Of a DNA stretch of 64,000 nt, positions 5,743-56,510 are shown one piece after another. The stretch's first letter is position 1. Each line of letters opens with the position of its first letter. The translations under genes and the position numbers were made by a program. The notes beneath the pieces are model-generated. The model was not told where the DNA came from. It saw only the letters and a list, made by a program, of their open reading frames with translations, and ran no database searches. The stretch spans positions 35,377,626 through 35,441,625 of the forward strand of contig CM074516.1 in the NCBI GenBank assembly GCA_037379345.1, written 5' to 3'. The stretch is from Perna viridis. Its lineage: Eukaryota.

Positions 5743-5903
5743 TGAGGAAGGTCATAAGTTCAATTGCCCATTATATGTTTTACTATAGTATATTAACATC
5801 TTTATCGGTATCTTTGTCTCAGAATGTGACAACTTAAAGAAGGGTCTGAAAAATTCGGGATTTGGACATGCTCTATTTTCAATTCCCTAAAAAGCCTGTC
5901 AAT

Positions 5904-7495
5904 TGTGATCTTGAGTTTAGGAGTCAGATCACGTGATGTTCTGTTTTTATGGTGTGACGTAATAGGCTGGAATGAAAACCAAGTTAACACAATATAACTT
6001 TATTAAAATAGATGTTTCTTGTATGGCGGCCGTTGTCCAAGTGGCCCGAATAATATAATCAAAACAATATGATAATGCATTAGAATAGGTTAATAGCTAA
6101 CATTTATGCATAAATTAAACAATGGGGAATTTAACTCATATTTTGATAAAGTGGGGGAATTTAGCTCATATAATGTTATTAGACAGTGCCAAACAAATAT
6201 TGTGAATTATGAAAACATGGGGCTTCTTTTACTTAAATGTAACTACATGGTTGCCATAGAAACCAAAATGTAAACAATAATGATTGACATATCTAGATAA
6301 AGATTAAATTGAAACTGTCACTAAATTGACATAATAACTACTAAAAACATATATACAACGCGCTGTGATCTAAAGAAAAAGTTAGTAAATGAAATGCAAA
6401 GCGTGCAGCATAATTGAAATTCAAGTTACGCTTAATAAACTATGTTGGTATTGAGCTGCTAAAAAGTATTACATAAGTACAGCTCATTTGTTTAATTTTA
6501 CCTTTAAATGCCTATTTACGGCTGAATTCATAGCTATAAATGAAATGTAACTTTGCCGCTGTTTACAAAATAAAGTTTCAAGTGGAGATAACTCCTACAA
6601 TATATCTTAAAACCAAAGCTTGAACTTGTTGCCAATAAATGCGCATGAACCATAGTAAGTATTGCAAAGTAAGTAATTGAGACAATGATTCAGTAGATTA
6701 TTATAGAACTACATACACATAAGTAAATGTTAAAATGTACACACACATATATGAACACAAATAACAACTGATTGTCATGTGCTAATAAAGATATTCTATT
6801 CAGATAAAGTGCGCTAATTACTGCAAGTTAAAACACTTAAAAATAAGTATCAAAATGTAATTTATACTAAGACATAAATATCTCATATTAACTATTAAAC
6901 ATTCAAATTGTAATATAAAAATTTACTACTTACCTGGAATGAAAACCAAGTTAACACAATATAACTTTATTAAAATAGATGTTTCTTGTATGGCGGCCGT
7001 TGTCCAAGTGGCCGAGTTTACCAAACATAAAGTTATGTTTTCACTCCAGGTGAGGCCCATTGAAGGAAAATAGCTATATACACAAAGAGCAAATATATTA
7101 AAACCCCTTATTGAACCTCTATGAAAAAATATGTGAAAAGCCATTTCATGTCACCTAATCCACCTATGTTAAGTGCTAGGACGCAGTCCTTAATCCGGAT
7201 ATGCTATAATCTTATCCCTGATTTTGTATAGCCTTAATTATACAGTTAATTATCAAGTCTTGGTATCTATTTAGTCTTACGTAAGATATTTACATACTTA
7301 AAACATGTTGGCACTACAGCATTATGTTTCTTTTTAAATATATGTTTATTAAAATACTTGTGAAACAATATTAAGTTTAGGTGACTGGCTTGGACATTAC
7401 AATGTACAAACATGAAAAATATCAAATGAAACAATAAAGAAAAATATATGCATATTATGTACAAGAAGGGATGATGGCTTGTTTTCCCTATCACA
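5904..7495 (-). repeat. 3' LTR (1592 bp = 625-bp LTR + 967-bp extra segment)
   Basis: 5904-6046 and 6934-7495 match the 5' LTR. The 80 bp at 5967-6046 are duplicated at 6934-7013, with 887 unique bp between them. Confidence 0.95.
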
Positions 7496-7510
7496 AATAC
7501 TCCCCTCATT
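7496..7510 (-). promoter_or_regulatory. Polypurine tract
   Basis: Minus strand AATGAGGGGAGTATT abuts the TG start of the 3' LTR. Confidence 0.85.
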
Positions 7511-7742
7511 AAGGTTTCTTTGTCCTCAAAGAACAAAGCTAATTGTCAAATAAATAGTAAAATGACTGATCAAAACAACATTCACATCCGATACCATCAG
7601 ATGGCAAGTCACACGAAGAGGCAGAAGACCATGCCCAACGCATACAATGTTTATATATTGAAAACTTTAGCCAAAGAGGTACGTCTGTAAAAGATCTCCC
7701 TAGCTATGTGGTTGGTTTGTAAAATTTTTTTTTTTTTTTTTT

Positions 7743-8171
7743 TTATTTGACTACTTGGAAAAAGTTGTTATGCACTATCAATATATAACAAGTAAATGGT
7801 GACTTGAACATGTGTTTTAAGCATCTTGCTTTGATGGGATTTATTGAAATTAGATCAGGTACATGTAAGGTGTGTTTAGTGTGTGTATTTATAATGTTGA
7901 GGCCTGACAATTGAATGTGTAATCTGGTGAAGATGGTGCCGGAGATTCTCATGTTAGAAATATTGTGTGGATTTGATATTTCCCAGTCTAGTTTAGCTTG
8001 TTTGGTAAAGAACACTCCATAGTTAATACGTTGTAAGCTCTCTCTGTCTGTTGACATACCCTCGACCATACTTATTATCATGAGAAGGCAGGCAAATCTT
8101 AGTACTCCTATTGAAAACAAAGATGAAGAAATTTTAAGACGGCAGTGTTTATCGTTTAAGGGAGGATCCAT
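7743..8171 (-). pseudogene. Internally deleted env-like third ORF of the Gypsy element
   Basis: Lies between integrase and PPT. A hydrophobic signal-like stretch (VLRFACLLMIISMVEG) is followed by LQRINYGVFF, then abruptly by unrelated-looking sequence. Far too short for a complete env. Confidence 0.6.
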
Positions 8172-8578
8172 TCCCTAATAGCACTATGGAACATGAGAAC
8201 GAGCTCATAATTTTGACAAACACTACACTAGAAATCCTAGAAGAGAAAAAATGTAAGAAGAGTACATAAGAAGTGCCTTACAATCTCACATCTAACTTGT
8301 AGATCAAATCAGGCATAGAGGAGCAATCAAAAATGAAGTGAAGTTGTTTGCAATTGTTAAATGCAAAATGCTTTAATGTAAAATGAAAACACTTGAAAGT
8401 GAAATGCAAAACACTGTAGTGTGAATTGTAAAATGCTTCTATGTTAACTATAACAATAGACATGTAAAATGAAAAATGATTATCCAGTAAAAATGTGTAA
8501 TGTAAAAATAAATTGTATTCCTATAAATGGCAATATGAAGTTTTCACTATTCCATTTATTTTGCCTTGTGTGTAAGAC

Positions 8579-9750
8579 TCATTTTCTGAAGCAGGGATTT
8601 CTATGTGGACGTTTTCGTTTCCTACCCTGTTGTGTTTTTGTTGCATGGTAATGGGTAATGGTATCCTCTGACAAGTTTTCTGCAGGTTGCCATGATGAAC
8701 CCGTATAACCTTTCCATTTGATGAGGTACTCCTTTTTACCATTGACCGTTTTTGAACGAAGGATTTTTTCTATGGGATATTCCCTGTCATCTATTTGAAC
8801 CGCTGGCTCATTGTTTGTGTTTTCATTTTTGTCTATGTTTTCATTATTGTGTTGTTGCTGTGGTATGTTTGGTTGTACTGGTCTGGGTAATTCTGGACGT
8901 GGGACGTCTGGTCCTGGTGCATTTAAATTTTGTCTGTGATCTGGATCATGGTAATGTTTGAGTCTATTTGCATTGATTAAACTCTTGATTTCTTTGTTTG
9001 TACCACACCTTCGAAGTTTGTAAGTGTAGTTTGGACCCTTGTCAACAATGTAAAATGGTCCATCTTGTTTTTTGTACAGTTTGGATGAGTACCCTACTGG
9101 AACTCTTGGAGTGTAAAGAAGCACTCTGTCATTGATTTTAAAGTCTGGAACTCCTGTGTTTTTGTCATAATGTTGTTTCTGTTGTTGTTGTGCAATGGCT
9201 AAGTTTTCAGTTGCAATTGTTTTGGCAATTTTCAAATTGTTGAGAATGTTGTCAATGTGTTTTTTCAAATTTTTGTTTAGATCTTCTCGTGGAATGAGAT
9301 TTGCATCAAAAAATATGTTCATCTCTTTTCCAAAAACAAGATGATATGGTGAAAATTGTGATGATGCTGATGGTGTCATACGAAATGCCATGAGTACTCC
9401 TGGTAATAACTCAGGCCAGTTGGATTGTGACTCATCTACTACAGTTCGTAAGCATTGTATGATGGTTTTGTTTGTGCGTTCTGCTATGGAGTTTGTTTGT
9501 GGATGGTATGAACTTGTGAAACTATGTTTGACATTGAAAATGTGGTTAACTGCTGCCACAAGTTTGCTCATGAAACCTTGTCCTCTATCAGTGCAAATAG
9601 AGTGTGGACTTCCATAGCGTGTAAAAATTTCTTTGTACATGACTGTAGCAATTTCTTCAGCAGTTTCAGATCTAACAGGATGAGCTTCAACCCATTTACT
9701 GAAAGAATCTACTATGATCAATATAAAGCGATAACCTTGTTTTGTTTCTT
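8579..9750 (-). CDS. pol: Integrase core and C-terminus with GPY/F motif and chromodomain (frameshifted continuation of pol)
   Basis: IVDSFSKWVEA, TDRGQGF, YHPQTNSIAER (DDE core), DGPFYIV, and YPIEKIL...YLIKWKGY..SSWQPAENL (chromodomain). Confidence 0.93.
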
Positions 9751-12648
9751 TTTGAATGGACCAATCAAGTCCATGTGCCATCTTGAAAAGGTGTCTGTGA
9801 TTGGCATTGGTGTCATTGGAACTCTTTTTGAGTGTGGTGGGTACTTTGCTTTTTGACATGGATCACAAGCTTTACAGTAATCTGCTACAGCTTGATACAT
9901 GCCTGGGAAGAAGTATTTTTGCTGTATTGACCTGTATGTGCGATCAAATCCAAAGTGTCCTTGATCATGGTATGCTTTCATAAGATCATTTCGAAGTGTG
10001 CGTGGTAATGCAAGTTGTTTAATGAATCTGTCATGTTTTTGTTTTCCCTTGTACCTTGGTTCATATTGGTGGTACAGGACTCCATCTTGCATGATGTACT
10101 GATTTGCTTCAATTGTGATTTTGCGTGCCATTTTTTCATCATCTGGTAAGTCTTGTGATTTAAGGTATGTGTACAAATGACAAAAGTCTGTACATTCACT
10201 TTGTAGTTTGCCTATGTCAACTGGTATAATGTCTGAAACTGTGACTTCCGCAATTGTTGGTGGTTTTGTTACTGTTGGTTCATTGTAAAGAAATGTCACT
10301 TCAAGTGCATCATTGTCTGTACTGTTCATGGAGTTGACAGTGGGTATGCTATCCTCTGGCTCAGTGACATCAACCTCCCGTGTCTCAGGATAGCTACGCC
10401 TTGAGAGACAGTCAGCAACTACATTGCTTTTGCCCTCTCTGTACAAAATCTCCATATCATACCCTTGTAACAGAACTGACCATCTAGCCAAACGACCAGA
10501 ACTTTGTTTGATGTTGTTAAGAAATTTGAGTGCTCTGTGATCAGTGTAAACTTGGAAATGTTTGCATGCTAAATATACATGGTAGTGTTTTATTCCTTCT
10601 AGGATTGCTAAACATTCATGTTCACTAGCTGACCATTTTCTTTCAGCTTCTGTCATACTTCTACCACCATAAGCTATGACTTTTTCTTGTTTGTTTTCAT
10701 GTAACTGTGAAAGGTAATAGCCGATAGCTGTGCCGCTTGCATCTGTGGTGAGAATGAAGTCTTTGGACATGTCTGGGTATGCTAGTATTGGTGCTGATGT
10801 AAGTGCATGTTTTAATGTGTCAAATGCCGATTGACATTGCTCTGTCCATTGAAATGTAACACTTTCTTTTGTTAAGTTTGTAAGTGGACTTGCAATTTTG
10901 CTGAAACCTTTGACAAACCGCCTGTAATACCCACATAAACCCAGAAAGCTTTTTATGTCCTTTTCATTTTTTGGAACTGGAAAAGATTTTACTGCTTCAA
11001 TTTTTTCATGATCAACTTCAACACCTTGTTTTGATATTTTGTGGCCCAAGTAAATGACATTTTTGCGAGCGAACTGACATTTGCTTGGATTGAGTGTAAG
11101 GTTTGCTGCTATCAATCTATCAAAAACCAGTTGTAAATGTTTTAAATGTTCCTCAAATGTTTTACTGAACAGCAAAATGTCATCAACATAGACTAGTGCA
11201 ATTTGGTAGTTCAGACGATGTAGCACTTGTGTCAGCAGGTGTTGAAATGATGAAGGTGCTGCTGCTAAACCAAATGGTAGACGTTTCCATTGGTATACCC
11301 CACTAGGTGTAACAAAGGCTGATTTTTGTGCAGTAGCTGGATCTAATGGACATTGCCAATAGCCTGACAACAGATCCAGTGTGCTGAATATCTGAGCCTG
11401 GGAACGCCCTAGGGAGTCTAGCACATCTTCAATGCGTGGCAGTGGAAAAAATTTTGGCTTTGTAACTTTGTTCAGTGCACGAAAATCACAGCAAAATCTA
11501 AGTTCACCATTTTTCTTTTTGCACATTACCACTGGAGCTGCCCACTCACTGTTTGACTCTTCAATTATGTCATGTTTTAGCATTTTTTCTAGCTGTTTGT
11601 TCATTGTATCTAAGACTGCTGGTGATTGTCTGTAAAATCTTTTTCTGATTGGTGTTGCATCTCCTGTATCTATTGTGTGTTTGTATAGATCAGTTAAACC
11701 TAATTCAGTTAGATCTCTTGCAAATGCTTTTCTGTTTTTGTGTAAAAATGCTAAAAGCAATGTTTTTTGTTCTTCTGTCAAGTCTGAGTGGCTCAAGTCA
11801 AAATCTAAACATGGTTGATCTTCGGTATGATTCATGGTACATGTAGTGTGTTGGTTTTCATCATTTGGTGGGTCTTGTAATGGTGTGATTGAATTGGATT
11901 CAACTTGACAGACTGATGCAACAACTACATTTGCTGGTAAATGTATGTTTTTCTTTGTTGGGTTCATGATCCTGATGCATGAGTCACCCGTTTCATCTAG
12001 TTTGACTAAGCATTTTGCGCCTGCGAGTGATTGTGTTGGTAGGTTTTGTAAAGGTTCTAGAAGTGCAATGGTATTCTTGAGATGTGACACTTTAATTGGT
12101 ATATCAACTTGATGCATTGGTTTGATTTTCATGTGTCTTTTTGTTCTAGCTAAGCCACTGTCTAATGCAATAGAGTGTGTGATTGGAATTTCTTCACTGT
12201 CTGGTTCTGGGATGTGTAAAGTATGTGTTGGACAATCAATGTTTGCTCTGTGTTTTGTTAAAAAGTCAAATCCAAGAATCAGACTCTGTTGCATTTTTGG
12301 AAAAACATGAAACTTGTATATGAAGGACATGTGTCCTATGTTGAAAGACAAAAGTATGAGACCTATGATTGAATGATGTTCACCTCCTACACCTACAGCA
12401 TCTTGAACGTGGCATTTTTGTATTTGTGAGAGGTCAAAATTTAAAGATTTGAGAAGGTTGAGGGAACAACAACTGATGGTCGCTCCTGTGTCAACTAATG
12501 CCTTAACATTTTGACCTTTGACAGTGATGTGTACTGAATTGCCCCTTAATGCTGAGATTTGTAAAACATGATTTGAATTTGAGATGATTTCTTTGTTCAA
12601 AGATTTTGTAATGTTAGTCTGTTTTGTGATTTGCCTTTTTCTGACTAG
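9718..12648 (-). CDS. pol: Pol: aspartic protease, RT, RNase H and integrase zinc finger
   Basis: ALVDTGA (protease); LPFGL and YVDD (RT); TTDAS...EHECLAI...TDH (RNase H); H..GH...C..CQ (integrase HHCC). The frame is open back to the gag stop codon. Confidence 0.97.
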   Translation of the reverse strand, partial: LVRKRQITKQTNITKSLNKEIISNSNHVLQISALRGNSVHITVKGQNVKALVDTGATISCCSLNLLKSLNFDLSQIQKCHVQDAVGVGGEHHSIIGLILLSFNIGHMSFIYKFHVFPKMQQSLILGFDFLTKHRANIDCPTHTLHIPEPDSEEIPITHSIALDSGLARTKRHMKIKPMHQVDIPIKVSHLKNTIALLEPLQNLPTQSLAGAKCLVKLDETGDSCIRIMNPTKKNIHLPANVVVASVCQVESNSITPLQDPPNDENQHTTCTMNHTEDQPCLDFDLSHSDLTEEQKTLLLAFLHKNRKAFARDLTELGLTDLYKHTIDTGDATPIRKRFYRQSPAVLDTMNKQLEKMLKHDIIEESNSEWAAPVVMCKKKNGELRFCCDFRALNKVTKPKFFPLPRIEDVLDSLGRSQAQIFSTLDLLSGYWQCPLDPATAQKSAFVTPSGVYQWKRLPFGLAAAPSSFQHLLTQVLHRLNYQIALVYVDDILLFSKTFEEHLKHLQLVFDRLIAANLTLNPSKCQFARKNVIYLGHKISKQGVEVDHEKIEAVKSFPVPKNEKDIKSFLGLCGYYRRFVKGFSKIASPLTNLTKESVTFQWTEQCQSAFDTLKHALTSAPILAYPDMSKDFILTTDASGTAIGYYLSQLHENKQEKVIAYGGRSMTEAERKWSASEHECLAILEGIKHYHVYLACKHFQVYTDHRALKFLNNIKQSSGRLARWSVLLQGYDMEILYREGKSNVVADCLSRRSYPETREVDVTEPEDSIPTVNSMNSTDNDALEVTFLYNEPTVTKPPTIAEVTVSDIIPVDIGKLQSECTDFCHLYTYLKSQDLPDDEKMARKITIEANQYIMQDGVLYHQYEPRYKGKQKHDRFIKQLALPRTLRNDLMKAYHDQGHFGFDRTYRSIQQKYFFPGMYQAVADYCKACDPCQKAKYPPHSKRVPMTPMPITDTFSRWHMDLIGPFKKKQNKVIALY

Positions 12649-13749
12649 TCAATTTTGGTTTTGTTGATTTTGTTGTTGTTCTCGTTCTCTTTGCCAGCAT
12701 ACCTCTTTGTAATGACCTAATTTTTCACAATGACGACATTTAACATTGAATGCAGGACACTTTCTCCTATCCCTTACATGCGACTTACCACAGTAGATGC
12801 ACTTTGATTGTGACTGCTGTCCTGACCTGTCTTGACCCCTTGACCGGTACTGTCCCTTTTTTTCATGTGAAAATGCCATCACCTCTTCTTTAAATGCAGA
12901 TCGAATACCTTCTACAATGGAAGAACATAAATCATTAATAGAAGTAGCATTGGAAGTATTGTTCGTACATGTATTTTGTGCTGCTTGATGCTGAACGGTC
13001 ATATTTACTGGTACAGGTGTTGCTGGTGAACACTCTGCCACACTTGTTGCTAACTGTATAGCTTGTCTAAGCTGGTTCATGGTTTTGGGATCTTTTCCCA
13101 CAACAAACGGTTTAATATTGTGCTGCAATCCATGAACTGTTAAACCTATAATTGTTTCTTCACTCATATTTTGCACTCCATTTTGTAAGTTTTGGACACG
13201 TGTTAAATATTGTATCCCAGTCTCATGTGGATATTGCTGCAACCTATCCAGCTCAGTGTTGGTATTTCTTTGTTTAAATCTCTCTAGAAAGGAGGCTTTT
13301 AAAAGATCAATGTCCTTTTTCGTTCCCTCAGGCAACGAATGGTACCAGGTTAATGCCTGACCCTGAATGTGAAATGGAAAAGAGGCTGCTGCAGCCGGTT
13401 TATCATGACCATTTATTTGTATATAATTTTCAAACATGGTCCACCACAGTGATGGGACTTGGGTGGTCTCGTCATGAAAATGTTGTAGAATTATATGCGC
13501 CATATTTCGCCTTCTTAAATTATTAATGACTTGGAGATTAGAATTTGTGTTACTGATACCACTTGATTCTGACTCTACAGGAGTAGGTTGACTAATCTGT
13601 CTAGACTGTTGCTGTTGGTCCAGTGAATCTGTAATTTCTTCGAGTAATTGGTCAACTGGATCCTGGGTCTCCTGGGCTGTTTGACTTCTGGTTTTGATGA
13701 AGTTAGTTGGTGTGGCCCCCTGTTTAGCACTGCCTTGATTTCTTGACAT
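12649..13749 (-). CDS. gag: Gag with C-terminal zinc knuckles
   Basis: ATG about 36 bp after the PBS start; capsid-like ALTWYHSL...SFLERF; CIYCGKSH...C and CRHCEKLGHYKEVC knuckles. Confidence 0.95.
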   Translation of the reverse strand: MSRNQGSAKQGATPTNFIKTRSQTAQETQDPVDQLLEEITDSLDQQQQSRQISQPTPVESESSGISNTNSNLQVINNLRRRNMAHIILQHFHDETTQVPSLWWTMFENYIQINGHDKPAAAASFPFHIQGQALTWYHSLPEGTKKDIDLLKASFLERFKQRNTNTELDRLQQYPHETGIQYLTRVQNLQNGVQNMSEETIIGLTVHGLQHNIKPFVVGKDPKTMNQLRQAIQLATSVAECSPATPVPVNMTVQHQAAQNTCTNNTSNATSINDLCSSIVEGIRSAFKEEVMAFSHEKKGQYRSRGQDRSGQQSQSKCIYCGKSHVRDRRKCPAFNVKCRHCEKLGHYKEVCWQREREQQQNQQNQN

Positions 13750-13769
13750 GTAGAGCGTCGTACAGGAAT

Positions 13770-13785
13770 CACGGGTTCTCTACCA
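13770..13785 (-). promoter_or_regulatory. Primer binding site
   Basis: TGGTAGAGAACCCGTG begins 2 nt after the 5' LTR. It resembles the initiator-Met PBS (TGGTAGCAGAG) with a gap; the priming tRNA is uncertain. Confidence 0.7.
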
Positions 13786-13787
13786 TT

Positions 13788-14412
13788 TGTGATCTTGAGT
13801 TTAGGAGTCAGATCACGTGATGTTCTGTTTTTATGGTGTGACGTAATAGGCTGGAATGAAAACCAAGTTAACACAATATAACTTTATTAAAATAGATGTT
13901 TCTTGTATGGCGGCCGTTGTCCAAGTGGCCGAGTTTACCAAACATAAAGTTATGTTTTCACTCCAGGTGAGGCCCATTGAAGGAAAATAGCTATATACAC
14001 AAAGAGCAAATATATTAAAACCCCTTATTGAACCTCTATGAAAAAATATGTGAAAAGCCATTTCATGTCACCTAATCCACCTATGTTAAGTGCTAGGACG
14101 CAGTCCTTAATCCGGATATGCTATAATCTTATCCCTGATTTTGTATAGCCTTAATTATACAGTTAATTATCAAGTCTTGGTATCTATTTAGTCTTACGTA
14201 AGATATTTACATACTTAAAACATGTTGGCACTACAGCATTATGTTTCTTTTTAAATATATGTTTATTAAAATACTTGTGAAACAATATTAAGTTTAGGTG
14301 ACTGGCTTGGACATTACAATGTACAAACATGAAAAATATCAAATGAAACAATAAAGAAAAATATATGCATATTATGTACAAGAAGGGATGATGGCTTGTT
14401 TTCCCTATCACA
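13788..14412 (-). repeat. 5' LTR (625 bp)
   Basis: TGTGATAG...GATCACA termini, internal AATAAA, and a match to the 3' LTR minus its 967-bp segment. Confidence 0.96.
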
Positions 14413-15375
14413 CAATTACTCTTCTGTAATGTGTGATTTTCTAAGAATTTACATCTATAAGGTCTTTGTTTTTACATTAGCCCTAGTTAAACAGTTCTCT
14501 AACAAAGGAGAATAGAACTGCACTATGGAAAAAATTCCCATTTACAGTCATGTACTCAACGAAAAACATTCGAAATTTCTAATGAAACAAAAATACCGGT
14601 TTATAAAGGACTTTAATGCTATATCCATCCATTGGTATCGACTCACTCACAATTAACACTTTAAAATATATTTCAACTAAATATTGTATCAAACAATGTT
14701 ATCTAATTCTAAATATTCACATACATTTGTAGCCTGAAAAAATGTTTCCTTAGACAAAAACTGTATACTTGATTTGCAGCTGTATAAAATATATCAAGAG
14801 GAATTGCCAGTATCATTTGCTTTCAGAACCAACATAACGTGTATGTACATTCAGCACTTCAAAACACTGTCATTAACTTTTCTTTATAATCATTATTTGT
14901 ATATACATATATATATAAGATCTGTCTTACATGAACTGGAAAGTGTTGATTTTATCCAAAAAAAAAAAAAATTGCTGGGTCAAAGATTCAGCAAATCCTG
15001 TAGGTTATACAATGCTGTATATAGCGTGCATATTTTATGAATGAACGTTGTCACATGAAAACTTATTTCCCCCCGAATACACAATGACCCACTTTGATGA
15101 TTTACTCCGTGCGTGAGAGACCCCAAACGATAGCCAATGACATTAAGAAACTCCTCAGTCCGTCATACATTACACATGTGTGCAAACCGGGTTTAACAGT
15201 ATTGAGTATATATGTTAGCACGAAAACGAAAATTAAACCAAGTATAGGAACAGTCAGCTGTTTGTCAGCGTCAGTCATATCGTGCAAATGATTGGCTAAC
15301 ACTGTGTTACGAAAGATTTTTGGGGGTTTTAGTGGTTTATATCCAAAAAGACAGTCGAATTATGTCCTAGAAGAT

Positions 15376-17450: not shown

Positions 17451-18239
17451 TAGCAATATGTAATAAGTACCTCAGTAATTCAACTTTCAAGTTTAGTTTA
17501 TTCTTGTGTTGAGGTCATCTTTAAGTTACAAAATACAGATACATACAGGAGTGAAACGAAACCATTGGAATTTGTTATGGTTATCTGAAGTAGCGGCAGT
17601 ATGCTGCGTTTTAATACTGCTGTTACAGTAATTATTTAGCAGAGCTTTTTACGGCAATCAACTAAGTAGAGTAGTGTTAAAGTATAATTCGCTGAAGTTT
17701 TTCTTTATGTATTTATGATATAGTGGTGGTACCAAGCTCAAGCCAGCGAACAATAAGGCAGTAAACAATAAGAAAGCGCGAGAAAACTCCAATATCTAAA
17801 AACCATAAAACGTAACAAGCCCACAACGGACTTTGCCATTTTATTTCAAATTATTATCATTGGATTATTTCGTATTAAAATTGTTGACACTATTGCGTTT
17901 ATGCACGTATTTCTAATGCATTCCAAATTGCTTTATAGAAACTGAAATGGAAAACTTTTTGAATAAAATTTTGAATATCTTCATAGACGTAAGATATTTG
18001 TTGTCATGCTGATATGATTAATTAACTAATTTTGGACCCTGGTTTAGGGTCCGATTTGTAAATGTCTGGATCTGACATTGATAACTCTGTCAACTTCAAT
18101 TATAGAACTCAATTCAGTTAATTACATAAAGACAGAATAATGTTAAAAATAAACAATTCCCCTTCTATATATATATACAAAAATAAATTATATGCCTTTT
18201 TGTAAAAACACACAAACAAAAACGTACAAACAAACTTGG

Positions 18240-19420
18240 AATTTCCAGTTTTGGGTGAATGGTTCATATGCACATCCTGGAAATTTAGAAGTGAGCAAAC
18301 CGGTATTGTGACTAACTACCCATGAATGGCATGTAAAAACTTTGCCGTAGGAGTTTTTTATAACACCTTGAAGACGGGTCCCCTACATGACGTTTTTTCC
18401 CAACTTTGAATTCCATGTTAGGGAGAACAGTCCAATTGCACACCCTGAAAATTTGGTGGTGAACTAATCGGTATGGTGACTAACGAACCCTGAATGGTCT
18501 GTAAATGCTTTGCCGTAGTATACTTTTACGACACCTTGAAGAGGGGTCTCCCTCATGAGTTGCTTTGCAACTTCGAATTTCTTGTTTGGGAAAACGGTTC
18601 GTATACTCACCCTGGAAATTTGGTGGTGAACTAATCGGTATGGTAACTAACTTACCCTACAAGGCCTGTAAAGGTTTTGCCGTAGGAATTTTTATATAAC
18701 ACCTTGAAGAGCGGTCCCCTACATGACGTTTTCTCTTAACTTAGAATTCCCTGTTCGGGACAACGGTTCATATGCACACCCTGGAAATTTGGTGGTGAAC
18801 TTTCATGCCATTTGTGGTCAGGTTATCTCACTACCGGTTAGTTTATCTCCAGATTTCTAGGATCCATATTAACCTGGAAGCCCGGGTAAAATTTTCGTTC
18901 CACATATTTCTCTCAAATATAACCCCGGGTCATCAGTGACGTCTTCTGTCTCTTGATTGGCTGAACGAATTTGACTTTATTTTATTCACTTAAATACGTT
19001 TTAATATTTAAATTTAAAGAAAATTACGTTTAAATATTTTTTTTTCAAATTAATGATAGCGTCTTTTGATAATTGCACAATTACAGAGTTAATTTAGATA
19101 ATCTAATCTTTGTTTTTATTTTATTTCATAAGCGGCAATTTACTCATATATTGCACATATCCGTCGCTGGTGACCTGAGTCTATATTTTAGCGATCCTAG
19201 GTTCGCTTATGATATTGACCAGGGGACCAGATTAGGATCCATATATGAACTGCTCAGAGAAAGTTTCAAATTTGGCAGTTTATTTTACTCAAAGGATCCC
19301 TTTTCAAGTAGTTATAAAATATTTCGTAGCCTTAAGCTTTAGTGGTAAATTAAGGGTTGAGTTAGTTAATTGCCAAATTTCTAGGATCCGCATAAAGATC
19401 GTTTCCCCAGAAGTGGAACA
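18240..19420. repeat. About 168-bp tandem repeat (about 3.3 units) followed by inverted partial units
   Basis: Units begin near 18261, 18429, 18596 and 18764 (cac.ccctggaaattt...tttgccgtag...acaccttgaaga). 18803-18863 is the reverse complement of the unit, and further inverted fragments run to about 19420. Confidence 0.85.
18870..19234. mobile_element. Non-autonomous DNA transposon with a 10-bp TSD (AcademH-like)
   Basis: Ends taacctgg...ccagatta (imperfect TIR), flanked by GGATCCATAT at 18860-18869 and 19235-19244. The superfamily is inferred from TSD length and termini. Confidence 0.7.
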
Positions 19421-19907: not shown

Positions 19908-20747
19908 ATGCCGAGACACAAAAATCAGCCCAATCAAAGGCCTAGGTACAGTACATCAGATTCAGATAGTGATTATTATCGGCCTACACCAAAACGAATG
20001 AACACTAAATCTTACTCATATTCCTGTCCTAAGCCTATTAATTTAACAATGTCGACAACATCCGATACAACATCTACCCAGTCGGATCAAACTGTTTCCA
20101 CTGCTGACCTTTATAAACTAATGTTGACAGTAAAACAAAATCAAGATTCCCTGAGAACGTCACTCGAACAGAGAATTTCAAATTTAGAGACAAAATTTAC
20201 AAACGAAATAAAGATGAGCATGAAAACACTAAAAGATGAAATGACTTTAGAATTTGCTCAAGTTGACAACAAAATAAAGGAACTGGAAACTAAAATGTCA
20301 AATTATGAAAGTAAACAACAAGAAATAAACAATGATCTACCGTCTGTTAGTATGAAAAATGTTCAGCCAAAACTTGTATTTAGAAACATTAAATCTGAAG
20401 GATTAAATACTGATAGCCTGGAGACGTATGTTAACGGAATACTAAGATCAATTGGATTAGAGTTTAGTGTAGTTAGCGCTCAGCAGATCGGTAATCCGAA
20501 TAACGGAAGAGTAAACAATACACAACGTCCGAAACCAGTTCTTGTTACTTTCGGAGATGAAAATCAACGTGTTGATGTCCTTAAGAACAAACGAAAACTA
20601 AAAGACATAAATGATTACAAAAATATCTACATAGAAACAGATCGTACACGACAAGAACGCATCAACGACGCTAATTTGAGACAGATAATCAAATCAATTC
20701 CAGAACTTCAATTTCGAGGCGGGCGTGTAACCGTGAAGCAAAATTAA
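19908..20747 (+). CDS. LINE ORF1p (coiled coil plus RRM-like domain)
   Basis: Heptad-rich centre; RPKPVLVTF...VLKNKRKLK...IYIETDRTRQER. First ATG at 19908. Confidence 0.9.
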   Translation: MPRHKNQPNQRPRYSTSDSDSDYYRPTPKRMNTKSYSYSCPKPINLTMSTTSDTTSTQSDQTVSTADLYKLMLTVKQNQDSLRTSLEQRISNLETKFTNEIKMSMKTLKDEMTLEFAQVDNKIKELETKMSNYESKQQEINNDLPSVSMKNVQPKLVFRNIKSEGLNTDSLETYVNGILRSIGLEFSVVSAQQIGNPNNGRVNNTQRPKPVLVTFGDENQRVDVLKNKRKLKDINDYKNIYIETDRTRQERINDANLRQIIKSIPELQFRGGRVTVKQN

Positions 20748-23700
20748 CAGTTAAGCCAGTCAAATAGTAACGATGCCGAATTAAGACTGGCTTGTTGGAA
20801 TTGTAATGGTTGGTATGTGACACGACAAAACGATGATAGTAGGGAATTACGAGAAAGTATTTTAACTGCATTAAACTACGATATAGTTGGACTTTGCGAA
20901 AGTCACTTGAGAAATGATCAGACTATTAATTTGGAAGGTTATCATTGTATTGGAAACAATGGAAAACAAATTTCGAACAACGCATGGCGTGGTAGTGGAG
21001 GTATTGGTTTTTTAATTAAAAACTCGCTATATGACAGTTTTGAAGTAAACATTCTAGACGATAGTAGAGATGACATTTTATGGATTTATTTAAAAAACAA
21101 AGATGACCCAGAGCTAACTTTATATTTATGCGTGTGTTATCTACAACCCGAGCGATCGAGTAGAGGTAAAATTGCTCAAGAATTCTATGACTGTCTTTTA
21201 TCTCAGATGTATCTTTATAGTACAGGTTGTCCGATTTTCATTTGCGGTGATTTCAATGAACGAGTTGGAAATCTCCAAGATTTTAATGATTCATTAGACT
21301 ATTTGCCAAAACGTATTCCTATTGACGAAACAAGAAACGCATTTGGTGACTATTTGCTAGACTTCTTGAAGGACTCTAACTGCTGTATGCTAAACGGACG
21401 TGGTGATTACTCGAAAGACAATTTTACGTTTGTTTCACCCATCGGGAAATCAGTAGTTGACTATATGATTGTCCCATATACAGTACTTCCGAATGTTTGT
21501 AACTTTGAAGTAAAACTGATTTCGTCTCTGATAATTGAAAATGGTGTTCAACTTTCGACGAATACACGATTACCGGATCACTCTATACTTACCTGTTCAT
21601 TTAGAATCTCAGAATATGATCAACTCAACAAGAACATATTAGATACAACCGAAAACGTCACTGATACTACGAATATAAAATATCAATCAACACGTAAATA
21701 TAATGTTTCAAAGACTTATTTACCAGTGAACGATGCATGCGATGTCTCGAAAATGTTATCGACTCTTTACTCGATATCCGCAATATTGACGATAGAATTA
21801 ACACTATATACGAATCATTCATTGAAGCTATTCATCATGAAATGGACAACAAGGTTGACTACAAAGACTATACACCAAGTTCGAACAACGTAAACGACGA
21901 AATGCTAAACCATACTGGAACAATGATTTACGAGACTTATTGATAGAAACAAAGCTGAGAAAAAATACCTACAATTTAAAAGAGACAGACGGATTAAAAA
22001 TGAACTGAAAAACACGTTTAAAATAAAGAGAAGACAATTTGATAAACGTCTACGACAAGAAGAACGTAAATATGTGGCTCAAAGACTTGATAATATTAAA
22101 ACGTTTAACCAGAAGAACCCGAAAGAATTTTGGCGGGAAGTAAACAAACTTGGACCCGGGAAAGATACAAAAACAATTAATAGCGTGATAATGGGTGACG
22201 GTAGTGTTTCTCATAACCCAAACGATATTCTGTCTAGATGGAAACAGGAATACGCGAAACTTTTTTCTGGTGATATTCAGAATGTGGACAATGATTTTTT
22301 TGAACAATTAGAACAATTAAACACACAGTTAGAACAAGAATTTGAAAGTTTGAACCATACAAATGAAACGATTGATACTGAACAACAAAGTATAAACGAT
22401 CCTATATCGATTGAAGATGTTAAACGTGCGGTACATGGTTTAAAGAATGGTAAAGCAGTCGGAGTCGACAATGTTCCAAATGAAATTTTGAAAAGTGACA
22501 AACTAACCAACATTCTTCATGAACTATATAATGTTTGTTTTTCACATGGAATAGTACCTGATATGTGGTGCCAAAGTATCATCTGTCCGATTTTAAAGAA
22601 TGGAAAGGACTACCGTGATCCATTAGGATACAGAGGAATTAGTCTTACGTCAACTGTCGCTAAAGTATTTAGTCAAATAATGAATGAAAGACTTGTTAGA
22701 TATCTTGAGAACAATAATCTATTGAGTGAAGAGCAAAACGGATTTAGGTGTCTCAGATCATGTCTGGATCATATTTATTCCTTGTGTACAATTTTGCGTA
22801 ATAGAAAACTAATGAACTGTGATACTTTCTTGTGTTTCGTAGACTTTAGCAAAGCCTTCGACTCGGTCAACCATACTATTTTATGGAATAAACTTTTAAG
22901 TTCAGGTATACATGGAAATATGTTCAATACTATCAGATGTCTTTATTCGAAACTGAAAACTGCTGTCCGCTTGTCTCCCGGGATTCTCACCGATTGGTTC
23001 TCAGTTGATACAGGAGTACGCCAAGGCGATAATCTTGCTCCTACGCTCTTTGCGTTATTCATTGACTGTTTAGTACCACAAATTAACAATTTATCATGCG
23101 GCGTTCAAGTTGGAAAGGATATGATAAGCTGCTTACTTTATGCGGATGATATTGTGTTTATCTCTGATAGTCCATACGGTCTGCAACGCCAACTTGACGT
23201 CTTACATGAGTGGACAAAATTAAACTGTTTACATGTGAATATTGATAAAACAAAGATTATGCATGTTCGTAAAACAACAACTGACAGATGTGATTTCTCG
23301 TTTATGCTTGGTAATACAGCAATTTACTTCGTTGATAGATATCGCTATCTTGGTTTAACAGTCTCTGAAAATATAGACTACAACATATCTGTAAAAGAAC
23401 TCCCAGTTGCGGCTAGCAGGGCACTTGGATCATTAACCTCCAAATATCTTCATATGGGTAACATGGACTATGCTACATTCGCAAAGATATACGATAATAC
23501 TGTCATCCCCGTAATGGACTATGCGTCAGGCGTTTGGGGTTTGAAACGATATGATGTATTAGAAAGACTTCAGTATCGGGCTATTCGTACTTTCTTAGGT
23601 GTTGGGAAAACCTCACCGATTCCAGCAATAACGGGTGATATTGGATGGACTCCAGTACACATAAACAATCAGTGTAACGCAATTAGATTGTGGTGTAGAC

Positions 23701-39782: not shown

Positions 39783-42290
39783 TTAGAATGGTTTGGACCA
39801 ACATGCACACCATAGAATCAAGGAATGATAGGTTTTTACCCTGAATATCTTCCAAGATTTCAGGTACTGTAGTACTTTTCTGTGGTAAACAATTGGGTTA
39901 TTTTCCTCATCATCCCATACATGTATGATATATTTTCCTTTATAAAATGTAGGTGGTTTATGTTGGTTTACAGAGTCTGAGGAAGATGGTTTTGATACAG
40001 GATGAGCCAATGGTTTTGATGGAGGTTCTATTGATGATGGTGGATAATCTGAAGCTGATGATGAATTGCATAATATTTTTAATGAATGATGTGATGGAAC
40101 AGGTGGTTGTATCTCCATTAATTCACTTGACTGACAATTGTTATTTATGTTGAGTTCTGAGTTTTCAAGTAAAATTAGCTCTTTTAATTGTTTTACCAAT
40201 TGGTTTAAATCAGCCCCTTTTCGAAAAATAAGTTTGTCATCGACTTTTTGCTTCTTTTCTGTAAGTAATTTGTTGTTTAACAGCTGAAATTTTGTCCTTT
40301 TTATAAGTTAATGTATTCAAAAAATCTTCTACTTCTCTTTTTGACTTCCATTTGCCACCCATTTTTGAAATTGCCTGATGGAGTAAACAAGTTTGGACAT
40401 TATTTTTTTTTTAATTTGGCTTCTTTTTCCTCAATTCTCTTTTTCGAAATTGAACCCCTCTCTCACTGTAAGGTCAAAAATTCCCTTATATCTTTTTGCC
40501 TCCATTTTTCACCATTTCTTCTTGCTGTTTCTATATTTTTTGCTTTGTCATGTTTTGTCTCTAACCAGTCTAAAGTTTTATTATTACGCAGCATAAAACT
40601 TTGGCATTTATAGATGTTACATTGATATTGGTGGAAACAGTTTTTTGTCTATCGAGTTGTCCAAACATCCTTTCCATGGTTACGTTAGTTGCAAAGTAGC
40701 TTTCACTTTCCTGTAATTTTTTCAGGGTTGGTTGATAATATTTTCCATTTGGTAAAAAATTTGAAAAAAAAATTCCGACATTTTAACAACATAGCTCCAG
40801 TAACATCTTTAATGACTTCAAAAACAATTGAGCTGCATTTTTCTTTTAAAAGTGCCATCTGATATACTGGTGTATCATATTTCTCATCATTAAATAAATC
40901 ATAATCATTGTTCAAAATAATTTCTGGAGTTTTAGTAATTTTTTCCAGTTCTTCAACAAATGTGTTAAATATAGGACCCATTTAAAGTATGGGTAAATCT
41001 TTTGATGCTATTGAAAAATAAGGAGCTGTAATTTTAGTATTAATAATCCCCAGTGCCAAAAGAATGGAGTTGATAATATCATTTTCTAGAAGTTGAAGTA
41101 TGGACTGTTTCAACAAATTTGGTTTTGATCCACATGACTAGCAGGTAATAAAACTTTATCTTCTGCCTCAAGTAATAAACTCCACAAACATTGTTAAAAA
41201 TACATTAAAACGGTTTCCCTTCAAATTCATTATAGGTATATTGGAAATTCCATTCTCCATCATAAACTGTTGAAAAAAAAACAGGTTTCCCTACCTTTTC
41301 ATTGTATAAAAGTTTTGAAACGCATACTAATAAATTCTTGGTAAAAGATTCTCCTTGTTTATTGAATAAACATGGAAATTTCAAATTATGTTTTTGCTCA
41401 ATGTTTCTTGATATTTTTTCAGCAAATTCATAAAATTGAATCAGTACATATATTGAACATTGAAATTGATTTAGGTCCAGTGCTAATTCATCATCTATAT
41501 TCTCATTTTTCATTTCATAAATAAGTCTATTAGCCATTAGTTCGGTGTTACTTCTATCAGTCATACAATTGGTGATTTTCGATAAAAACTTTTCTTTATC
41601 ATTGACCATATCAACAGTAGCACCTACATAGTTTTCAGCAGATCCACTAGCTATTTCCTTAATTCCTGTGAAAATCAATTTATATATCACAGGATGCTGT
41701 ATAATGAAATAAACTTGATAATATGTTTTGGATGGGTACGTTGTGAGACAAGCAGCTCATAAAACATTCACTAACTGCAAAACAGTAACCCTGACTCACT
41801 GATTTGTGTTGATGTGGTTTTCATCTTTTTGGTAATATTTTTTAGTTTTAAAAAATCTAGTTCTTTAGTTACTTTCTTAAGTTTTAAAACCTTTCTCTTC
41901 AATTTTTTCTTTTCATTTCCCAATTGTATGATTTGGGTGTTGACTTTCTTCTTCAATGCTAATATTTCTGTAGGTTGTACTTCTTTCCTAATCTTCTTTG
42001 GATGTTTGAATGGCTCGGTTAGAAAAAGTACTGCTTCATGTTCTTTTCTGCATGTTTTTAAATATCTCAGTCTGTTGTTTGTACTAATTATCCTCTTTTG
42101 GAGAGTTGATGGTAATACATCATCAGGGTTAATTCTCCATATTTTACAAAACCAGTGATGTAATATTCTTCTGCATCCAATTCCATTGTACGATTTTGCA
42201 ATTAAATGCAAATCAATAGCAGTTTGGTTGGTTAGTTTTTCCACGTGAAATGGAATTTGAGGATATTTGTGATTCACATTAATCAGCAGA
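39783..42290 (-). pseudogene. Decayed large DDE-type transposase-like gene
   Basis: Collinear broken ORFs: basic coiled coil; KEIASGSAE, NCMTDRSNTE and QFQCSI; ATNVTMERMFGQLD (hAT-like ERxF C-terminal motif, about 40650-40692); Tudor-like KGKYIIHVWD at the end. Superfamily uncertain. Confidence 0.55.
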
Positions 42291-42735
42291 TATTACCTTA
42301 TTTACTAAAGCTACATGTAAATATATAAATTGAAGCTGTTAAAAAGCAAGCTGCAATAAATAGAGTGTGCAAGCAAAACTTAAAAAGCAAAGCAAAGTGA
42401 CTTTAAATAAGCATTTAATAGTTGCCATTTTTATGAATAATCTCACCTCATTTTTTATATTTCCATCAATAGTTGGAACAAATGATATTGAAAATTGGAA
42501 TGCAACATTTGTATTATTATTTTTCATTGGTTCTTGCAGATCTTAATGTGATTGGGGCTCCACGTAATATTACATTTACAGGTACTCGTATAAAGAAGCT
42601 GTGCTGTACTCGGATGAATTGTATTTTTTTAACATTTAATTAAAAATCAATTCAATTTAGATAAATATATTGTATTTAATTATTTCTCACTAAATAAAAA
42701 TTAAAATCATTATCTTAGTATAGTTATTATTATCT

Positions 42736-43530
42736 TCATTTCCTGCATTTCATACTGCTTACAGAATGAGATGATGAATTGGTATCACTGTCATCCAACT
42801 GAAGAATTACTAAATGCAGGGAAGGAAGTTCACTTGCCTCACCTGAAACATCATGCAGGTAAGCCTCAGTGTCACTAGAACTCACTTCAATGTAGTTAGA
42901 AAATTTATTATTTTCATAACTAAAAGGAGGCTGAGTTTCTGCATCACTGAAACTTACACCTGCTGAACATGCAAGAAGATCAGGTGGCATTTGGGTTTCA
43001 GCATCAATGAAGGATACTTCCTCCTGTTGGTTATGTAAACAGTTTTGAGGCTGAGATGCACAGTCACTGTCACTGAAACAAATGCCAGGTGATTCTGCTA
43101 CATGTTTGACAGCATATTCAGAATCAGACCACAGTTGACTGTCATAATCATCAAACAAATTTGATTGTGTTTGTGATTCTAGATTAAAGCTACTGGAATC
43201 TGATTCTGAAATTGCCATACTGCCTTCATCTGATGTACAGCATGTGACATCAACAGTGGATGAATCATCTGACCATGTGTCACTTAGATCAAACAGGAAA
43301 TCAGATGAATCCACTGTTTCTGGAGCAACTATAACACTTGCATTTGCCCTGCAATTGCAACAATTAGTCACATGGGTATGTGCATGGATCAGCAAGTTCC
43401 TCTGCAATATTGAAGTCTGGGAGAACATCAATGTTTTCTCTGCAGACAAATCTATATAGTAACGCTATTCTTGCATCATTGCATTGTGGCATTTCCAATA
43501 ATTGTGTCCTATATTGACATCTTGCCATTT
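42736..43530 (-). pseudogene. Frameshifted intronless ORF: Cys-containing N-terminus plus Ser/Asp-rich repeats; function unknown
   Basis: ORFs 43364-43546 and 42736-43449 overlap; repeats VSFIDAETQ and VSFSDAETQ. Confidence 0.4.
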
Positions 43531-48099: not shown

Positions 48100-49110
48100 A
48101 TACGATGTAATAGCCATGATACCATATCCAGGTGACAACGGAGATATTAAAGAACTACTATTTTAGCAATTTGTTCGCGACCTCGGAAATCTGTGGTTTC
48201 TTAATGATCCGTCATTGTATTTCAGCAAGAGTTTCAACGGTTGAGAGAATTAAACGACGAAGCGGATTGAGACGACGGCAAAACCGCAGCGATCTCGTAT
48301 TAGTCGCTCAGAAAATATATGAAGTCCGGAGAGAAGGTCATATAAATCTTGGATATAGGTTTTCATGGAGACTTTTGAATACACGCCACCACCTCTCTGT
48401 CAGTCAGGAAACCGTGAGGCACTTGTTGCGAATGATAGATGGAGAAGGTGTTAATTTGAGAACAAGACATCTATTACACAGGAGGACTTACTTCAACAGA
48501 GGACCAAATTTTCTTGTACACATAGACGGTTATGAAAAATTAAAACCGTTTGGAATTGCAGTTCATGGTGCTATTGATGGATTTTCCTGCAAAATATTAT
48601 GGCTACACGCTGGACCTTCTAACAACAATCCAAGGTATATTGCGAAGTATTTTTTAGATTTTATCCGAGAAAGGAGGTGTTTGCCGCGTGCAATACGTTC
48701 TGATCATGGTACCGAGAATGTATTGATTAGAGATCTAAAGATGGCGTTGAGATTTAATCATCACGATGACATGTCCGAATCTTTTTATTTGGAAGATCTA
48801 CTGAAAAATACATTGAAGGATATGCCTGATGCTGGTGATTTTTCTCCTAGCAACCCACTACATATAGAATGTGTTCGTTTTTTGTTTTCTTCTCCTCATG
48901 CAATCTCAATTACAGACATTTATGGATATTTGGAATTCTTACCGAATAAGACCACAAAGAAGACTAGGAGAAAGCCTGCGGGCATTCCAAATGTACTTTA
49001 CTGTCAACCACAGATGTATAACTGTGCATACTATTCGTTTGCTCTTCCATGTAATTTACAATCTATAGATGCTCTTAGCAGGGATTATTCAGATGATATG
49101 CCGGTTTTGA
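48100..49110 (+). pseudogene. IS3/IS481-like (IS3EU-type) eukaryotic DDE transposase, decayed
   Basis: HTH-like N-terminus; LGYR...VSQETVR; GPNFLVHIDGYEKLKPFGIAVHGAIDGFS; PRAIRSDHGTEN; frameshifted WNSYRIR. The region around the third catalytic residue looks deleted. Confidence 0.8.
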
Positions 49111-49267
49111 ACAAAACATTGTCGAATACTCAAACTTTGTCTCCTATAGAAATAATGCCAGGCTTTCCTGAGCGCTTACCAAAATTTCTACCACAGCCAA
49201 ACTTTTTACATAGGACCCTATATGAAAGCCAGGTGAACGCTAGATTTGGCTACTTATTTCGGTTTGT

Positions 49268-49372
49268 ATGAATATGAGTACCAACAACTGGAAATGAAAC
49301 AACTGGGTCGATGCCCCTTCTGGTGGACCAGAAGTCCCGAGGGTATTCTCAAGCCCAGTTATCAGACTCGTC
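49268..49372 (+). ncRNA. Degenerate type I hammerhead-ribozyme-like motif
   Basis: atATGAG-tacc-aacaact-ggaaat-GAAAC-aactggg...cccagtt-ATC. Stem III is perfect, but the CUGA box and stem II are mutated. Confidence 0.35.
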
Positions 49373-51234: not shown

Positions 51235-53130
51235 AATCTCCCAATAACATAAAGGGTGTCGATCACCTGACTTAAACAGGCCTATTTAGATATCTCTGCA
51301 TGATGAATTGAAAACTAATGATGGCCATCATGGAAGCAGATTGGGTCACTTTGAAAGTCATCATGACCACCTAAGTGTTTGCGTCAAGTTGGCTTACTAA
51401 CACATCTAGTTTCTGAGGATAAAAAAATCTCAATATTTTTCCCATAGGGTCCTAGTTAAAACTATGTTTGCTGATGGTTGCCAACTTGAATTTGCCGCGT
51501 GGTTTCTGACCAGAAGATCTTTAAACATTTTTCCATAGGGATCTATGTTAAAACTATGTCCATATCTTGATTTTCCAATCGGCATAAAAAAATATATACT
51601 TTTGTAGAGGACCTTCCAGTGAACACGCATGCAACAAATCAATTCAATTGGCCTTGGTGGTTTCTGAAAAGAAGAGCTTCAAAGGTTTAACACAATTGGA
51701 ACAAGTTTTCTGCCCTTGGCGGCCATGTTGATTTTCTGATCGGTACGAAAAACATAACTATTGTAGAACACCATCTACTGAACATCCATGCCAAGTTTCG
51801 TTAAAATTGATCATGTTGTTTCAGAAAAGATCAAAATGTGAACAGCTAATGATGGACAACGACGGACGCTCATGGGTAGCAAAACCTCACACGACCCTTT
51901 GGGTCAGGATGAGCTAAAAATGACAACCAGAACTGACGGACGCTCAGTGGTAGCAATAGACCTTTGGTCAGGTGGGCTGAAAACAATATGTTCAGATGAT
52001 ATTTGTAACAAGAGGCTCCAAGGAGCCTGAGTCGCTCACCTGGTATATAAGCCTTGTAAATATTTTCGCTCTGAACATTTCTGCAATTAAAGTTTCTTTC
52101 TATCTGTAACAGTTGCAAAAAAAAACAGTAAAATTTGTGAAAAATGGTTATTAAAGGGTAACAACTCCTGGACATCATTGGACCATTTCGGTCTGATTTT
52201 CTTTTTTAGATCTAATATTGTTAAACATTTTTCAATTTAAAGTTTCTTTCTAAATATTATAGTTTTTGAAATAATAGCCAAAAATGGAAAAAAATCGTGA
52301 AAACTTGTCAATAAAGGGCAATAACTCCTATAAGACATCATCAGACGATTTTGGCCATATTGACTTTTTTGTAGATCTAATATTGGTGAACGTTTTAGCA
52401 ATTTAAAGTTTCTTTCTTTGTATTATATTTTCTGAAATGATAGCCAAAAAAACGGAAAAATTTGTGAAAAATCATCTATTAAGGGCAATAACTCCTATAA
52501 GACATCGTCTGACGGCTTTGATCCAAATAGACCAAAGGTAGATCTCATCATTCTGATCATTGTCCTTGTCAGATTTTCTCTATCTTAAATGGTTTTTGAG
52601 ATACAATTCAATTTTGTGTTTTAGCCCTGGCGGCCATGTTTTTTCATCGGCGAAAATAATCGACACAATTTTGAAAAGGATGATTGTTGTAAAGTTTGGT
52701 AATGATTGGCCTTGTAGTTTTTGAGAAGATTTTTTAAAAAGTTTACGAACGGACGAAGGACGGACGCCAAGTGATGACAATAGCTCACATGGACCTTTGG
52801 TCAAAGTGAGTTCATTATTTATGACTGCTCAGTACTATCCAAGACACATCTACTGATAGTTTCTATGCTTAGTTCTAAAGAAATGAAGTTTAACGCAAAA
52901 CTTAACCAGAGTCCTTCAAACATAAAATGTAGGTCGTATTGTCCCAATTATTGTATGACTGCTCAGTACTATCCATGACACATCTGCTGATCAAGTTTCA
53001 TTGATACACTATGCATAGTTCCAAAGAAATAGACTTCAATGCAAAACTTAACCTGATAGTTCAGATGTTCATACGGACAGAAAAGGATAACACTATATGC
53101 CCCTCCACATTCGTGAGCGGATAAAAAAAA
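51235..53130. repeat. Cluster of nested HINE-like elements
   Basis: Repeated 3' ends with gacggacg plus gacc(c)tttgg(g)tc-a-gtgagct hairpins (about 51900, 51965, 52800); 5' end aacaagaggctccaaggagcc at 52007; about 165-bp tandem units at 52080-52590. Confidence 0.65.
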
Positions 53131-55899: not shown

Positions 55900-56510
55900 A
55901 ACTTAAACATATGTCTCCCACCTTTTTTTACTGCTTGATAGTTCTATATATGCACAAAAAATGAATGATATGCACATCTTCATTGTCATGATAATTAAAT
56001 GTGTCAAGTTTGATCTCAATGCAAAGTACAAGTATTATCTTAATCCAATGTATGGTGTTGAAGAATTCAAGCTCGAAAGCCATATACTCTATATACTGTA
56101 TACTGAACTTAGTTTTCTAAGTCATTAAGGGCCGTAACTGTGAGAATAAATTGTGAATCGTCAAAAAAGAAGTGATATGCATATCTTCACATCATGATAA
56201 TTAAGTGTGTCAAGTTTTATGTCAATCCAATGTAAGATTTGGAAGAATTTGCACTTGCAAACCATATATCATATATTGAACTGAATTTTCTAAGTCATAA
56301 AGGACCATAACTCTTGGACAAATTTATGGATCGTTGAAAAAAAATATATAAATAAGATGCATATTTTCACATCATGATAATTAAGTGTGACAAGTTTTAT
56401 TTCAATCCCATGGAAGGTGTGGAAGAATTTCCTCTCGCAAAAGTTTTTACACGGACGGAAGGACAAGACAAAGATAACGTGTCCCCTCTGAGAGTAGGAA
56501 GACATAAATA
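55900..56510 (+). repeat. HINE-like element with three internal units of about 190-205 bp
   Basis: atgca.at.ttca...tcatgataattaa.tgtg.caagttt near 55968, 56175 and 56357; acggacgg and a hairpin at the end. Confidence 0.65.

Follow-up and report, generated by a model that had tools for sequence, protein, structure and literature searches.

In-frame stop codons between gag and pol are already known from Moloney murine leukaemia virus (MuLV) and from the Tca2 element of Candida albicans (PMC2194720). Readthrough contexts are grouped into types, of which UGACUA is type II, and UAGGGV and UAGGAU are type III (PMC13517186, PMC3159437). MuLV uses a type III signal, UAG-G with a pseudoknot, and alphaviruses with a type II signal (UGA-CUA/CGG) add an extended 3' stem (PMC3159437, PMC13517186). 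Within Ty3/gypsy, the fission-yeast elements Tj1, Tosmo1-3 and Tcry1 have gag and pol in one frame with TGA and then CT(A/G) between them; this junction has been read as programmed readthrough, and the stop of Tj1 is needed for transposition (bioRxiv 10.1101/2022.12.06.519325). According to most descriptions, animal gypsy elements frameshift or use a single frame, with pol in the -1 frame in 28 of the 51 elements of one survey (PMC5009743). Here we describe a Ty3/gypsy element of Perna viridis in which gag and pol are separated by a single in-frame TGA followed by CTAG. It lies on the minus strand of a 64,000-nucleotide (nt) stretch of contig CM074516.1 (positions 35,377,626 to 35,441,625), hereafter the window, and an earlier model-made note on this DNA (the original prediction) had proposed that its Pol is made by UGA readthrough. 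Programmed readthrough, yielding a small share of Gag-Pol, is in our judgement a likely explanation of the junction and the best one.

The minus strand around the gag stop reads CAA AAT TGA CTA GTC AGA AAA, with the TGA at 12651-12649. From the ATG at 13749 through the end of the TGA there are exactly 367 codons (366 sense), and past the TGA the frame continues in phase with gag, uninterrupted for 976 codons, to 9718. In this downstream frame the protease Asp is encoded by codon 53, and the earliest Met comes only at codon 107. The original prediction was thus accurate in its reading of the letters: gag ends in AAT TGA, continues as CTA GTC AGA AAA open into the protease, shares its phase with pol, and is followed by no ATG ahead of the protease motif. 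It was also right that UGA-CUAG is a known readthrough context (type II, UGACUA; PMC13517186, PMC3159437) and that animal gypsy elements seldom have an in-frame stop at this place (PMC5009743). The feature as a whole (12645..12651, minus strand) has what defines a type II signal, UGA and then CUA in phase with the downstream coding region.

Both the position and the context of this stop are rare by chance. TGA-CTAG makes up 5 of the 8007 stop triplets on the two strands of the window, where any type I-, II- or III-like context accounts for 123, and it would result from none of the 627 ways, counted along the gag-pol frame, in which a single-base change can create a nonsense codon. The stop sits in the linker between the zinc knuckles of gag and the protease, which takes up 69 of 1343 codons. 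The junction is therefore a real feature that exceeds chance expectation.

The same junction is found in other samples of the organism. Of 24 listed sequencing runs, 20, from 9 studies, contain half or more of the sequence words in 11500-13900, and four runs from four studies were compared in detail with the window: X1, X9 and X12 as contigs, and X24 as raw RNA reads. TGA-CTAG is unchanged in all three contigs that span it (X1, X9 and X12, from three studies). These differ from the window by 8, 5 and 10 letters, respectively, all of them off the junction, and the gaps are likewise explained by insertions and deletions elsewhere. A break in the integrase of the window copy is absent from X9, X12 and X24, all of which retain the stop. 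Retention in the contigs of three studies argues that the stop is not copy-specific decay, as judged from these sequences. The X24 reads lie in a single orientation, consistent with sense transcription, at a depth of 12.6-16.7 over the junction.

DNA across the junction was also obtained from relatives. Scans of viral and metagenome contigs gave at least 112 loci, none of them close among the matches listed. A genome collection contains host contigs inside symbiont bins, and in each of the best 3 of 80 loci with a junction the knuckle is followed by an in-frame stop. Two such bins, G001 and G002, were searched and gave 45 protease matches (4 and 41), 30 of which were examined as loci; ten further bins gave weak matches only, at three loci, with E 1e-7 or worse. 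Both bins (L113-L117 and L193-L245) are bacterial bins with dozens of animal retrotransposon contigs, that is, host contamination. A knuckle, one in-frame stop and then pol were found in all six nearest relatives (protease score at least 90) and in 0 of the 24 more distant loci. Among the latter, a script called 17 as overlapping the knuckle frame in another phase; 1 is cut and 6 are unresolved. A +1 overlap had been considered for the relatives from back-translated protein ends, and was dropped when the junction DNA gave in-frame stops. In the three spanning contigs and the six nearest relatives, no sense codon takes the place of the stop.

The contexts of these six stops are UAG-G (four) or UGA-C (two). 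The junctions read TAG GGG TAC in L114 and L194, TAG GGG TGC in L116, TAG GAT in L195, TGA CAG in L115 and TGA CGC in L199. The four UAG junctions are MuLV-like type III contexts (UAG-GGG in L114, L194 and L116, UAG-GAU in L195), with a simple hairpin as the predicted structure in the first three. This predicted hairpin starts 6-8 nt past the stop and gives z scores over 60 nt of -2.9 (L114), -3.7 (L194) and -2.2 (L116). Across the four UAG junctions, 3 of the 9 predicted consensus pairs show a two-sided change and L195 breaks four pairs, four sequences being too few for a firm claim of covariation. Two distant gypsy-like loci, L075:4446 and L077:2149, are sisters in both reverse transcriptase (RT) trees described below and have upstream frames of 1256 and 716+ codons; their junctions, TAG CAA CTA and TGA CAA TCA, are type I (CAR-YYA) contexts, and they form a separate readthrough lineage.

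Protein databases give a wider view of the family. The closest named proteins to the element are from Mytilus, which points to a bivalve as the probable host. Three gag relatives are full-length, with 44-51% identity, and terminate 10-40 residues past the knuckle. We examined 258 pol matches, 179 of them with a protease score of at least 50. Among the 173 relatives with one protease and at most 2000 amino acids, 165 are pol-only frames; this form is compatible with a stop or a frameshift alike and is not decisive alone. In the other 8 the protease lies later in the frame, and three of them (P0065, P0149 and P0255) appear to be genuine single frames. One pol search reached only 1708 amino acids, which hides fused forms, and an unrestricted search was used as well. 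No longer gag fusions were found, in a search that also missed the known gag-bearing P0091, P0124 and P0265 and so provides no evidence on the point.

When the pol frame of relatives is translated, the hairpin arms appear as short peptide motifs. Of 63 pol leaders of at least 30 residues, 21 have the motif of the 3' arm, against a mean of 1.5 and a maximum of 6 in 1000 shuffles; this motif was picked after looking, and two of the matches discussed are gene-model or gag matches. In RT trees of 166 and 84 sequences (a subset of the matches, with midpoint or distant-outgroup rooting), motif-bearing proteins cluster with the DNA-verified stop elements with a support of 99. The nearest tree neighbours of the Perna viridis element, P0031, P0092 and P0009, all bear the motif; the element itself has neither hairpin arm and no stem of its own. 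From these proteins it appears that the element switched from a UAG-plus-hairpin signal to UGA-CUAG. A single in-frame stop is, in this view, the common state of the lineage, either as UAG-G with a hairpin or as UGA-C without a clear hairpin, as in the Perna viridis element, L115 and L199. More broadly, we lean, by a small measure, towards a large and old marine-invertebrate lineage of Ty3/gypsy elements with env and chromodomain in which readthrough is the usual mode of Pol expression and the signal classes have been switched: most branches would have a MuLV-like UAG-G and a conserved hairpin, others a hairpin-free UGA-C, and here UGA-CUAG would have replaced the former. The original prediction had suggested that leaky stops may be a common expression route in this host. 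Relatives from another host have this arrangement too, and the 24 distant gypsy loci there lack it, which argues that it tracks the element lineage; judged from these junctions, the idea of a leaky host is unnecessary.

If Pol is made by readthrough, one RNA driven by the long terminal repeat (LTR) would serve the whole element. Most ribosomes would end at the gag UGA and release Gag, while a few percent would insert an amino acid through a near-cognate tRNA, aided by the 3' CUAG, to give a Gag-Pol that the protease would then cleave. What the data show is how the junction is laid out, that this is conserved in other samples and in relatives, and that the sense strand is transcribed across it. 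We infer that the UGA is decoded, how often and as which residue, from a pol frame in phase with gag and free of Met codons ahead of the protease, the linker position of the stop, its rare context, the young insertion and the relatives. To this extent the readthrough proposed by the original prediction has gained support, with the stop kept in 3/3 contigs and a single in-frame stop at the same place in 6/6 nearest relatives. The same leaky-stop layout with different signals in the nearest relatives makes it look like a built-in device for producing little enzyme and much coat protein.

Several observations weigh against readthrough or against its extension to the lineage. The original prediction had looked to a stimulatory stem-loop downstream of the stop; in the Perna viridis element none was found in folds at six downstream lengths, where nothing rose above shuffles, although the UAG-type relatives L114, L194 and L116 have one. 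The 172 nt after the stop fold at a z of +0.8, and a scan for long-range duplexes after the stop found 69 of 100 shuffles as good. The element shares its stop and next codon with the alphavirus type II signals and lacks their 3' stem, a feature that is frequent, not universal, in this class; such stems boost alphavirus readthrough 3-14-fold (PMC3159437, PMC13517186). Nor does the element have the UAG-G and downstream structure of the MuLV-like type III signal, with which its stop shares purpose and position. Tca2 resembles it in having gag-UGA-pol in one frame and differs in being Ty1/copia, and the Tca2 junction alone gave no readthrough in Saccharomyces cerevisiae reporters (PMC2194720). Among the relatives, L195, L115 and L199 have no significant hairpin, UGA-CUAG itself occurs in none of the six with DNA, and the closest families (58-74% pol identity) fall outside the comparison. 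The six relatives verified by DNA were all taken from the same sample series (two bins), probably from one host, and the runs of Perna viridis may hold alleles of one insertion instead of separate copies. The lineage is also mixed, with the single-frame P0065, P0149 and P0255 and the -1 forms L159/165/168, which fall within the clade in one RT tree and outside it in the other.

Other routes around the stop were also considered. Pol might be translated from an RNA that bypasses the stop, either a minor spliced form or one with its own start: Copia splices, and Tca2 has a minor promoter at its junction (PMC2194720). Between the stop and the protease, at 12552, is a weak acceptor CAG preceded by 9 pyrimidines in 15 positions, and the gene models of two sister-family proteins, P0265 and P0092, join gag to pol by leaving out the junction region, although these are predictions. 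The original prediction had itself named a spliced RNA skipping the stop as an alternative. No splice joint at the junction is among the rows listed for X24 and the three contig sets, where detection of a joint needs 3 reads at a depth of about 13-17, the repeat at 12653-12696 beside the stop was skipped, and a spliced form below about a fifth of the RNA would escape detection in X24. The downstream frame offers no Met before codon 107, beyond the protease active site, and an RNA avoiding the stop leaves unexplained why the frame and a leaky context are kept in 6/6 relatives; we consider this route unlikely. A second rival is quite unlikely as well: the family would be defective and copied with the Pol of another element, the TGA would be a nonsense or frame-changing mutation that became fixed in it, and the CTAG would be there by chance. 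The window copy is otherwise damaged (an integrase break and a deletion in env), the hairpin arms of the P0009, P0092 and P0031 leaders are missing here, so that the junction has changed from theirs, and contigs lose rare variants. Yet chance would seldom give either this position of the stop or its context, and the records free of the integrase break retain the stop. No more diverged second family was found over the internal region at 82% likeness, with one contig per run, and the stop lies at the same place in relatives, where full-length gag proteins end.

Least likely, and very improbable in our view, is some other bypass of the stop, be it non-AUG reinitiation, selenocysteine insertion or a ribosomal hop. 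Tca2 apparently passes its UGA by a non-canonical route (PMC2194720), and many related pol frames have a Met shortly after the presumed stop. In DNA, however, those Met codons sit in the 3' arm of the hairpin, and the Perna viridis element has none. Selenocysteine recoding depends on a selenocysteine insertion sequence (SECIS) in the RNA; no SECIS family matched in 5800-14600 (Rfam, up to E 1), which gave 2 weak unrelated matches only, and the UAG of four relatives is not a selenocysteine codon. Packaging of Pol, moreover, requires its fusion to Gag.

The element spans 14412 to 5904 between two LTRs ending in TG...CA, and is flanked by a target-site duplication, ATTG, at 14413..14416 (upstream copy) and 5900..5903 (downstream copy). 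The 5' LTR (13788..14412; 625 nt, TGTGAT...ATCACA) is without 967 nt found in the 3' LTR (5904..7495; 1592 nt), which has an internal 80-nt direct repeat. The insertion is young, because the LTRs are identical over 562/562 and 143/143 nt; the target-site duplication is intact. The 967 nt at 5968-6933 (minus strand), present in the 3' LTR only, are flanked by the 80-nt direct repeats and are also intron-like, starting with GTAAGT and ending with TTCCAG. In an X9 contig the long form of the LTR runs on into the gag leader, which suggests that the form with the 5968-6933 stretch is probably the normal one. A possible primer-binding site, proposed from sequence only, starts with TGG two bases after the LTR (13772..13785).

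Gag (12652..13749; 366 codons) matches Pfam PF03732 (Retrotrans_gag, E 3.8e-10) and has C-terminal zinc knuckles and a Q/N-rich tail. The first open frame of pol (9718..12648) contains the linker and, by Pfam, the protease, RT, RNase H and integrase zinc finger; it stops at a break in the window copy, whose pol is interrupted again within the integrase, near 9750. The second piece, in another frame (8579..9862), holds the integrase core (rve, E 1.1e-10) and a C-terminal chromodomain (Chromo PF00385, E 1.8e-8). The order protease, RT, RNase H, integrase, together with TG...CA LTRs and a target-site duplication, is that of Ty3/gypsy. Downstream, a frame of 142 codons (7743..8171) aligns to residues 30-76 and 743-822 of the 832-residue third frame of L113, which matches Baculo_F (Pfam, E 1.5e-11). 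The frame itself has no Pfam match, and a search of a sequence atlas with it gave a single weak match, 0.75. The X9 and X12 contigs have about 2 kb extra at 7989, inside this frame, and the X1 contigs also break there. On these alignments the frame is a putative env with both ends of an F-type env and the middle missing. The element is thus a young, LTR-bounded Ty3/gypsy element with a chromodomain and an env-like remnant.

This anatomy resembles that of the chromodomain errantiviruses of Cnidaria, Mollusca and Annelida, as described in PMC13524379, in the order gag-pol-env and in the chromodomain after the integrase. F-type env is given there in each of the 15 mollusc rows compared, of about 46, and LTRs of 0.4-1.8 kb; the Perna viridis element differs in that its putative env is internally deleted. 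Judged from anatomy, the element fits this clade of chromodomain-bearing, F-env errantiviruses. The words readthrough, read-through and frameshift do not appear in the main text of that paper, and PMC6238403 has 0 matches for readthrough or stop codon. The literature searched holds no report of readthrough in the marine env-bearing clade, although subscription papers or Repbase notes may mention such junctions. The fission-yeast elements, compared by description, are like the Perna viridis element in being Ty3/gypsy with a one-frame gag-pol and TGA before CT(A/G), and differ in being fungal, in a conserved GAA before the stop (AAT here) and in having no env (bioRxiv 10.1101/2022.12.06.519325). 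The mechanism itself is not new; the interest lies in its lineage-wide use with more than one signal class.

The remainder of the window contains other repeats and open frames. The original prediction had pointed to a neighbouring, unrelated retroelement with a different readthrough motif, and such a junction is present: in a long interspersed nuclear element (LINE) at 20745-20753 (plus strand), ORF1 ends with TAA followed by CAG TTA, a CAR-YYA-like context. The endonuclease frame is in phase past the TAA, its first Met is codon 154, and the copy is broken again at 21891-21927. A 383-codon frame at 48120-49271 (plus strand) has an integrase-core match (PF24764, E 9.8e-14). Four clustered open frames of 173-242 codons at 39783-43464 (minus strand), with an A-rich coding strand, have no Pfam match. 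Short arrays of diverged 150-180-nt repeats lie at 18224-18801, 52078-52520, 56163-56441 and 61417-61910.

If borne out, a whole marine lineage that uses readthrough with both type II and type III signals would offer a natural series in which to follow the evolution of such signals and the replacement of one by another, and would provide the first of them for testing in molluscan cells. The hairpin arms are visible as peptide motifs in the pol frames of databases, so that hundreds of natural variants could be mined. Annotation pipelines call such elements broken or invent introns over the stop, as in P0265 and P0092, and intact families would therefore be undercounted.

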